Source of the DNA: Escherichia coli
GTDB lineage: Bacteria; Pseudomonadota; Gammaproteobacteria; Enterobacterales; Enterobacteriaceae
Assembly: GCF_003018255.1 (NCBI RefSeq)
Contig: NZ_CP027440.1
Direction: 5' to 3' (one strand)
DNA length: 64,000 bases
Below, piece after piece: positions 19,074-20,366 of this stretch. A program made the position numbers and the translations under genes. Positions within the stretch are counted from its first letter, which is position 1; each line of letters starts with the position of its first letter. The notes beneath the pieces are model-generated. The model saw nothing but the letters and a program-made list of their open reading frames with translations, searched no databases and had not been told where the DNA came from.

Positions 19074-20366
19074 TTGCTACAAGGCGCTGGCTGGTTATTG
19101 TTGCTGGCCCCGTTTTTCTTCTTCACATATGGATTTCTTAATCAGTTCACCGCGACTCAGGATCTTAACAACCATGATATCCCCAGTCAGTTATTCGGTT
19201 GGGAAACGGCGATCCCTTTTCTTCCCTGGACTATTGTTCCTTACTGGAGTCTGGATCTTTTATATGGATTTTCGCTGTTTGTTTGTAGCTCGACATTTGA
19301 GCAGCGCCGTCTGGTCCACCGGCTTATTCTGGCAACGGTAATGGCCTGCTGCGGTTTTTTTCTCTATCCGCTGAAGTTTAGTTTTATCCGTCCTGAAGTG
19401 AGTGGGGTGACAGGATGGTTATTTTCGCAACTTGAATTGTTTGATCTGCCTTATAACCAGTCTCCTTCGCTGCATATTATTCTCTGCTGGCTACTTTGGC
19501 GTCACTTTCGTCAGCATCTGGCTGTGAGGTGGCGTAAAGTCTGCGGCGGATGGTTTTTACTCATCGCCATTTCGACGCTGACGACCTGGCAGCATCATTT
19601 TATTGATGTCATCACAGGGCTGGCGGTAGGTATGTTAATTGACTGGATGGTGCCCGTCGACCGTCGTTGGAATTATCAGAAACCTGATCAACGTCGAATC
19701 AAAATAGCACTGCCATATGTCGTAGGCGCGTGCTCGTGCATTGTGTTGATGGAGCTAATGATAATGCTTCAGTTATGGTGGTCAGTCTGGTTATGTTGGC
19801 CAGTATTATCGCTATTCATCATTGGCCGTGGGTACGGTGGGCTTGGCGCGATAACAACAGGGAAAGATAGTTAGGGGAAACTCCCGCCCGCCGTTTACTG
19901 GCTGACATTGCCCTGGCGCATCGGGATGTGGCTGTCTATGCGTTGGTTTTGTCTTCGCCTGGAGTCGGTGAGCAAAATTACTGCTGGTGTTTATTTAGGG
20001 GCGTTTCCACAACATATTCCGGCACAGAATGCTGTTCTGGACGTCACCTTTGAATTCCCTCGCGGACGAGCCACAAAAGATCAACTCTATTTTTGTGTAC
20101 CGATGCTGGATCTGGTGGTTCCGGAAGAGGGGGAGCTCCGACAGGCCGTGGCGATGCTGGAAACATTACGCGAAGAGCAAGGCAGCGTTCTGGTCCATTG
20201 CGCGTTGGGATTATCGCGCAGTGCGCTGGTGGTGGCGGCATGGCTGTTATGTTACGGACATTGTAAAACCGTTGATGAAGCGATTAGTTATATTCGAGCC
20301 AGACGCTCGCGGATTGTGCTTAAGGAAGAGCACAAAGCGATGCTGAAATTATGGGAAAACAGGTAA
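19074..20366 (+). pseudogene. ynbD: ynbD membrane phosphatase (PAP2-like membrane domain plus dual-specificity phosphatase domain) interrupted by an in-frame TAG at 19872-19874
   Basis: ORFs 18975-19874 and 19908-20366 are in the same frame, separated only by the TAG; the downstream part carries the CX5R signature [11 protein letters not shown] 430-aa product (remembered K-12 length) fits exactly from TTG 19074 to 20366 if the TAG is read through. Confidence 0.55.

Follow-up and report, generated by a model that had tools for sequence, protein, structure and literature searches.

A derived amber codon in the interdomain linker of ynbD in a small lineage of Escherichia coli

Introduction

YnbD has been described as the fourth putative PAP2 protein of Escherichia coli, and no function is ascribed to it in the account given in PMC7413402. 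According to that account, the ΔynbD mutant and a strain lacking all four PAP2 genes are both viable, and over-expression of YnbD did not complement C55-PP phosphatase mutants or PGP phosphatase mutants, the latter result setting YnbD apart from the PGP phosphatases (PMC7413402). The legend of Fig. 1A in the same article refers to YnbD as aligned to the PAP2 motifs (PMC7413402). As for the other genes of the operon, two further articles state that the promoter of ynbA is among the loci activated by BglJ-RcsB and needs such activation (PMC3950696), and that ynbB is a non-essential paralogue of cdsA, the knockout of which grows normally and the product of which has been implicated in the biosynthesis of the glycolipid MPIase (PMC6362211).

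Among the systems to which the protein can be compared, lipid phosphatases of the PTPMT1 type, which act on PGP, share with YnbD the CX5R active site and the dual-specificity phosphatase (DSP) fold. The operon also resembles a set of lipid-biosynthesis genes, with a CdsA-like YnbB and a PgsA-like YnbA. The fold and the operon together suggest that the substrate of YnbD may be a phospholipid-phosphate. However, YnbD resembles PTPMT1 only marginally (3rgo, E = 6.6e-4), higher scores being obtained with generic dual-specificity phosphatases (DUSPs).

The closest described gene is ynbD of strain K-12 (b1411), annotated as [quoted passage not shown]. We analyzed its counterpart in a 64,000-nt stretch of E. 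coli DNA, referred to below as the window. The two genes are alike in locus, gene order, the 430-codon frame, and the combination of PAP2_3 and DSPc domains, and their DNA is 96.1% identical over 1,451 bp. They differ at codon 267, which reads CAG in K-12, where the ORF is intact, and TAG in the window, and in about 46 codons, roughly half of them non-synonymous.

Materials and Methods

The region 19000–20450 of the window was compared by megablast with 5,426 complete E. coli genomes. Genomes with T at position 19872 were searched for with a 55-nt query centred on this T, for which each 28-mer megablast seed was forced to contain the base. The Pfam scan of YnbD was performed on the translation with Gln restored at residue 267.

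Every single-base nonsense change in ynbD was screened for in silico in the 5,426 genomes on four haplotypes (K-12, M8, 7/2, and CFT073). The probes consisted of 25-nt flanks and of spacers that mismatched each known haplotype. The transition screen comprised 69 possible changes, and its list of genomes was completed by a rerun without the six largest groups. The transversion screen comprised 127 targets.

Suppressor tRNA alleles were searched for with seed-forcing 55-mers derived from K-12 glnV/X, glnU/W, tyrT/V, serU, and leuX, in which an amber (CTA) or ochre (TTA) anticodon was introduced. In addition, a glnV-glnX query specific to the lineage was used, in which each of the two anticodons had been mutated; exactly two mismatches to this query denote the wild type.

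Results and Discussion

Organization of the ynbD locus

According to the ORF list, the window contains two ORFs in a common frame on the plus strand, 18975–19874 (299 aa) and 19908–20366 (152 aa), with a single in-frame TAG between them. The earlier note had described the region in these terms, and all of its coordinates hold. Translation of 19074–20366 gave 430 codons, of which codon 267 is the sole internal stop, and the statement that a 430-codon frame from TTG 19074 fits only if this codon is sense was also correct. In genomes identical to the window over 19000–20450, the pseudogene feature assigned to ynbD by PGAP coincides exactly with this frame. The annotation of K-12 ynbD begins at the in-frame GTG 19050, compared with TTG 19074 here. 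The features of the locus and of the remaining window are summarized in Table 1.

Table 1. Positions of the features discussed in the text
Feature	Position	Strand	Remarks
MicC sRNA	2922–3042	+	Rfam, above gathering threshold
ynbA	15786–16391	+	Intact; ORF list and PGAP annotation of 2014C-3338
ynbB	16391–17287	+	Intact; ORF list and PGAP annotation of 2014C-3338
ynbC	17303–19060	+	Intact; ORF list and PGAP annotation of 2014C-3338
ynbD pseudogene	19074–20366	+	430 codons, TTG start; translation; PGAP frame in identical genomes
Retained N-terminal frame	19074–19871	+	266 codons; all hydrophobic helices and PAP2 module
PAP2_3 (PF14378)	19296–19640	+	Residues 75–189; Pfam i-Evalue 2.7e-4 (weak); PAP2 PF01569 weaker
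Premature stop TAG, codon 267	19872–19874	+	C>T at 19872; ancestral CAG (Gln)
Candidate restart codon ATG	19938	+	Hypothetical; codon 289; in-frame, upstream of DSPc
Candidate restart codon GTG	19968	+	Hypothetical; codon 299; in-frame, upstream of DSPc
DSPc (PF00782), dual-specificity phosphatase	19989–20360	+	Residues 306–429; Pfam i-Evalue 1.1e-26; 3′ of the stop
CX5R active-site loop HCALGLSRS	20196–20222	+	Residues 375–383; direct reading and motif search
azoR	20420–21025	−	Downstream of ynbD
RydC sRNA	29608–29671	−	Rfam, above gathering threshold
sok antitoxin RNA of hokB locus	30231–30382	−	Rfam, above gathering threshold

The ORFs and the annotation of the identical stretch gave the gene order ynbA-ynbB-ynbC-ynbD-azoR(−)-hrpA. 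The gene was identified as an orthologue of ynbD by this conserved setting, by its two-domain architecture of PAP2 and DSPc, and by similarity, with 95.5–98.4% identity over the whole 1,451-bp query in sampled genomes outside the TAG lineage. The frame itself is interrupted, and because of the TAG at codon 267 we regard the ynbD of the window as a pseudogene allele and not as a functional member of the family.

Position of the stop codon relative to the two domains

The hydrophobic stretches of YnbD finish near residue 250, as judged by hydropathy, and the PAP2 motifs all lie upstream of the stop codon (KFSFIRP at residues 101–107, SPSLH at 130–134, and HHFIDV at 174–179). The C2 (S-x-H, in SPSLH) and C3 (H-x3-D, in HHFIDV) motifs are both retained. 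For the C1 motif, KX6RP, only KFSFIRP (K-x4-RP) was found, and the best Pfam model, PAP2_3, matched weakly. Downstream of the stop codon, the DSPc part had DUSP26, DUSP13, DUSP14, and their relatives as the closest solved structures, with E-values down to 6e-7. The CX5R signature reported for this part in the earlier note is present and has the form of the HCX5R(S/T) P-loop of Cys-based phosphatases inside the DSPc fold.

By these domain assignments, the stop codon is placed in the linker between the PAP2 and DSPc domains. The separation of a membrane domain from a phosphatase domain by the TAG, as first described, was thus borne out with respect to the position of the codon between the PAP2 and CX5R (DSPc) domains, but not with respect to the contrast between the two parts, since the N-terminal part is itself a PAP2-type phosphatase/phosphotransferase module with intact C2 and C3 motifs. 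Termination at the TAG is predicted to yield a membrane protein of 266 residues that retains the PAP2 module and lacks the DSP domain.

Polarity and distribution of the nonsense change

In the alignment, codon 267 was CAG (Gln) in K-12 BW25113, 7/2, CFT073, and M8, and TAG in the window. The same TAG in K-12, which the earlier note had named as the finding that would speak against a truncation, was therefore not observed. In all of these four reference strains, ynbD is annotated as intact. The ynbD locus was present in 4,766 of the 5,426 genomes, and at least 80% of the query was covered in 4,601; T at position 19872 was found in 12 of the 5,426. Because the orthologues have CAG and the T is restricted to these 12 genomes, the stop codon represents the derived state, and Q267* is, as read from the alignment, a nonsense mutation caused by a single C>T change. 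A Dcm hotspot was considered as the source of this change and rejected; the ancestral context, GT-CAG-GG, is no CCWGG site.

The 12 carriers originated from the USA, China, Japan, Viet Nam, and Australia. Eight genomes were 100% identical to the window over the 1,451 bp of 19000–20450, two more were 99.8–99.9% identical, and the next tier was 98.4% identical. Ten of the carriers (2014C-3338, SCU-171, JNE120442, 21F61, 200164, JNEC-KY177, JNE23-011, JNE112863, E04, and 2017.09.02CC) have the haplotype of the window and are also its ten closest genomes over 24.5 kb (99.4–99.8% identity), none of them being identical. Since the allele has persisted through a divergence of 0.2–0.6% among the carriers in these surrounding 24.5 kb, Q267* is not brand new.

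The other two carriers, EH41 and EH53 from Australia, did not differ from one another over 5 kb, and their haplotype differed from the window by 3.3% (166 differences in 5 kb). The allele of EH41 and the very common intact allele of the M8 type are one base apart, the C>T change in codon 267. The presence of Q267* in EH41 and EH53 would thus reflect either a second independent origin or transfer in a conversion tract of less than 95 bp. Independent mutation appears to be the simpler reading, given this one-base distance between the EH41 and M8 alleles.

Six carrier genomes were inspected for their annotation, and in each of them PGAP lists ynbD as a pseudogene with an "internal stop". The note reads "internal stop" in 2014C-3338, E04, EH41, and EH53, and "frameshifted; internal stop" in 2017.09.02CC, in which ynbD carries a further deletion, of 1 bp, at window position 19212. 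E04 has an additional missense change, Q318L. This deletion and Q318L were the only further changes in ynbD within the lineage. Four of the six ynbD changes private to the window alter the protein, and those other than the stop consist of three missense and two synonymous changes, which are small numbers. Q267* is thus a nonsense pseudogene already annotated as such by RefSeq/PGAP, and an ordinary allele of a strain lineage.

Q267* as a probable near-neutral loss-of-function allele

We consider it likely, with a probability of roughly 0.85, that Q267* is a lineage-specific loss-of-function allele, neutral or nearly so, of a gene that is dispensable and belongs to a normally silent accessory operon. 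Through a spontaneous C>T transition, the Gln codon CAG at position 267 would have become the amber codon TAG. Translation would stop at this codon and release the 266-residue membrane protein with the whole PAP2 module, and the C-terminal DSP domain would no longer be made within the YnbD protein. The allele would persist through the weak constraint on, and the dispensability of, ynbD.

With regard to constraint, the intact alleles of K-12 and CFT073 differ by 22 synonymous and 22 non-synonymous codons, and those of M8 and 7/2 by 29 and 17 codons, respectively. Since intact alleles differ at about equal numbers of non-synonymous and synonymous codons, ynbD appears to be weakly constrained. 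The ynb operon as a whole is missing from about 15% of the genomes. For example, 15.TR.026_OXA lacks ydbD-ynbABCD, and pdxI directly adjoins azoR in genomes of this kind.

As the earlier note had stated, a truncation would remove the predicted phosphatase step. The loss seems to matter little, because ynbD is a dispensable gene to which no function has been assigned (PMC7413402), and because about 25 independent nonsense events were found in it (see below). Q267* marks a small E. coli lineage, and it would remove the DSP phosphatase of YnbD, at least as a fused domain. For annotation, the pseudogene label that PGAP already gives the locus is the appropriate one, and the allele adds one more data point on the erosion of ynbABCD in natural E. 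coli.

Other nonsense alleles of ynbD

In the transition screen, 68 genomes matched. The apparent stops at codon 7 (AHM8C strains and GMF065) were left out of the census, as they only shift the start codon; PGAP calls ynbD of AHM8C212RI intact from a downstream TTG. After removal of these cases, about 17 independent transition-type nonsense events remained, located at codons 39, 52, 115, 153, 191, 202, 208, 236, 267 (two events), 276 (two events, TAG and TGA), 281 (two events), 286, 291, and 313. The transversion screen yielded 8–9 independent events, and the total was about 25. All nonsense clades were small, comprising together about 77 of about 4,600 ynbD-bearing genomes. Ten alleles were verified by their "internal stop" annotation and by translation, namely W115*, W191*, Q202*, R208*, two W276* alleles, W281*, W286*, W291*, and the allele of GMF065. 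These natural alleles resemble Q267* in the kind of lesion, the small size of each clade, and the "internal stop" annotation, and they differ from it in the codons and haplotypes affected and in that some of them are accompanied by lesions in ynbC. Across E. coli, ynbD has thus been inactivated by many different lesions.

In several carriers of ynbD nonsense alleles (AH04, 2013C-3264, and S1-INA-02-B), ynbC was truncated or had an internal stop. These lesions suggest that, in some lineages, all of ynbABCD is being eroded.

Clustering of transition-type nonsense alleles in the linker

The transition-type events were not evenly distributed. The linker (codons 267–305), which supplies 9 of the 66 targets, received 8 of the 17 events (P = 0.0009; P = 0.003 when the allele through which the gene was ascertained is left out). 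Of these 9 linker targets, 7 were hit, compared with 8 of the 43 targets in the PAP2 part and 1 of the 14 targets in DSPc. Detection bias was examined as a cause of this clustering and rejected, as the detectability was 0.92–0.99 throughout the gene, with its lowest value in the linker. The clustering may indicate that truncations in the linker are tolerated, or it may reflect a local mutation bias. Purely neutral decay does not predict such a concentration, so truncations in the linker may be specially tolerated. If real, the concentration would amount to a natural test, on a small scale, of the relative importance of the two halves of YnbD.

One explanation of this kind is that a stop in the linker splits the gene into two functional parts, one encoding a PAP2 enzyme of the membrane and the other a soluble DSP phosphatase translated on its own by re-initiation at ATG 19938 or GTG 19968, so that linker stops are tolerated or favoured. 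This would explain why the transition-type alleles cluster in the linker under uniform detection sensitivity, and several features are consistent with it. The stop of Q267* follows the last hydrophobic helix and precedes DSPc, and in-frame starts with SD-like sequences lie between the linker stops (codons 267–291) and the beginning of DSPc at residue 306. GTG 19968 is preceded by GGAG 5 nt upstream, and in the start-codon scan the anti-SD duplex energies of ATG 19938 and GTG 19968 were −5.0 and −5.2 kcal/mol, respectively, compared with −5.7 kcal/mol for the ynbC start. In addition, Q267*, W276*, and W281* each had two origins.

Several other observations argue against a split gene. The transversions showed no clear enrichment, with one of 8–9 events in the linker (L279*, in three genomes) on 8 of 127 targets (P about 0.4); this class neither replicates nor refutes the clustering. 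Dcm CCWGG sites are a classical mutational hotspot. A CCTGG Dcm site at 19912–19916 overlaps the Trp codon 281, and the other linker sites are not in a Dcm site. The W281* allele with TAG (AR_0017 group, at least eight genomes) is a G>A change within this CCTGG, the change that deamination of 5-methylcytosine on the opposite strand would give. Carriers of nonsense alleles also gather more lesions, as seen in the frameshift of 2017.09.02CC and the three lesions in ynbD of GMF065, and the broken ynbC genes described above point to decay of the whole operon. Furthermore, the clustering test was post hoc, and the re-initiation is a prediction from the sequence. On balance, a functional split of ynbD seems unlikely, and near-neutral loss of function is the reading that we retain for Q267*.

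Recurrence and possible selection for loss

Alternatively, removal of the DSP domain, or of the whole function of YnbD, may be advantageous in some niches, and the allele may have been selected. The identical mutation on two unrelated haplotypes and the clustering of nonsense alleles in the linker would fit such selection, as would the presence of W115* in at least 18 genomes, mostly pig-associated. However, for 12–18 events on 69 targets, the probability of a repeat at the Q267* site was 0.15–0.22, and that of some coincidence anywhere in ynbD was 0.64–0.91. Because the probability of a repeat is within chance expectation, the double origin of Q267* needs no special explanation. The small size of all nonsense clades also counts against selection, and nonsense alleles were not enriched within DSPc, although stops there would likewise remove the DSP activity. 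Adaptive loss is therefore judged distinctly improbable, and we keep to a neutral or nearly neutral origin of the allele.

Decoding of the amber codon

If a suppressor tRNA, programmed readthrough, or another form of recoding caused the TAG to be read as an amino acid, the full-length 430-aa protein would still be the main product. This reading agrees with the frame being open across all 430 codons and with the downstream domain having only two private missense changes. A tRNA of the supE type would give back the native Gln, and the CAG-to-TAG change is of the type that the glnV(CUA) suppressor of supE44 laboratory K-12 strains turns back to Gln. In contrast to those strains, the suppressor allele was absent from the carriers checked for it, as follows.

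The combined suppressor query matched 160 of the 5,426 genomes. For the glnV/X CTA anticodon (supE type), the 60 matches listed all had laboratory or K-12-like names or sources (C600, DH5alpha, DH1, and J53 among them), with DSM 498 listed as well. The positive control for supE was thus successful, given the laboratory strains such as C600 and DH5alpha among the listed matches. When the supE segment was left out, only DSM 498 (serU CTA) and the laboratory strain OV2 (tyr CTA) matched, both of them laboratory or collection strains and neither of them a carrier of Q267*. Hence, CTA or TTA alleles of tyrT/V, serU, leuX, and glnU/W (supF/D/P/B/C type) were found in none of the 12 carriers. As for supE, glnV and glnX had the wild-type CTG anticodon in 2014C-3338 on direct inspection, and the best matches to the lineage-specific glnV-glnX query had two mismatches, with the carriers SCU-171 and JNE120442 among them, which identifies these as wild type. 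The supE allele was thus absent from the three carriers examined directly (2014C-3338, SCU-171, and JNE120442), and no tRNA gene was found within the window.

A search for amber suppressors in the same genomes, as the earlier note had proposed, consequently gave no amber or ochre suppressor allele in the carriers that could be checked. The stop codon is moreover derived and rare, whereas an in-frame stop used for recoding would be kept across the ynbD orthologues, and one carrier (2017.09.02CC) has a frameshift upstream of the stop. E. coli is not known to have a pyrrolysine system, which also counts against sense decoding. The possibility that codon 267 is sense, on which the 430-aa protein depends, is accordingly unsupported for a derived C>T change present in 12 of 5,426 genomes, annotated as an "internal stop", and joined by a second lesion in one carrier, and we regard such decoding as very improbable. 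Although the difference is a single base, a sequencing or assembly error in the window has a negligible probability, because 12 complete genomes, each sequenced independently, share this base, eight of them being 100% identical over 1,451 bp.

Other observations on the surrounding region

Directly upstream of ynbA, the ydbD gene (DUF2773 bactofilin; window 14267–15617, plus strand) is split into the ORFs 14261–14620 and 14846–15187. It is annotated as "frameshifted" in 2014C-3338, and an indel of about 35 nt near 14627–14642 separates the window from that strain. Thus, ydbD is a second decayed gene adjoining the ynb operon. In 2014C-3338, the only phenylacetate (paa) genes annotated at about 12216–13112 of the window are paaY and a C-terminal remnant of paaX, beside a truncated helix-turn-helix gene, and the remaining paa operon is missing between ydbL and pdxI. 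The ends of the window (1–763 and 62611–64000) did not align to 2014C-3338, and the 62 kb between them were 99.2–99.7% identical. The flanking content therefore differs from that of 2014C-3338; the left end of the window lies beside ttcA. The three small RNAs listed in Table 1 are ordinary for this chromosomal region.
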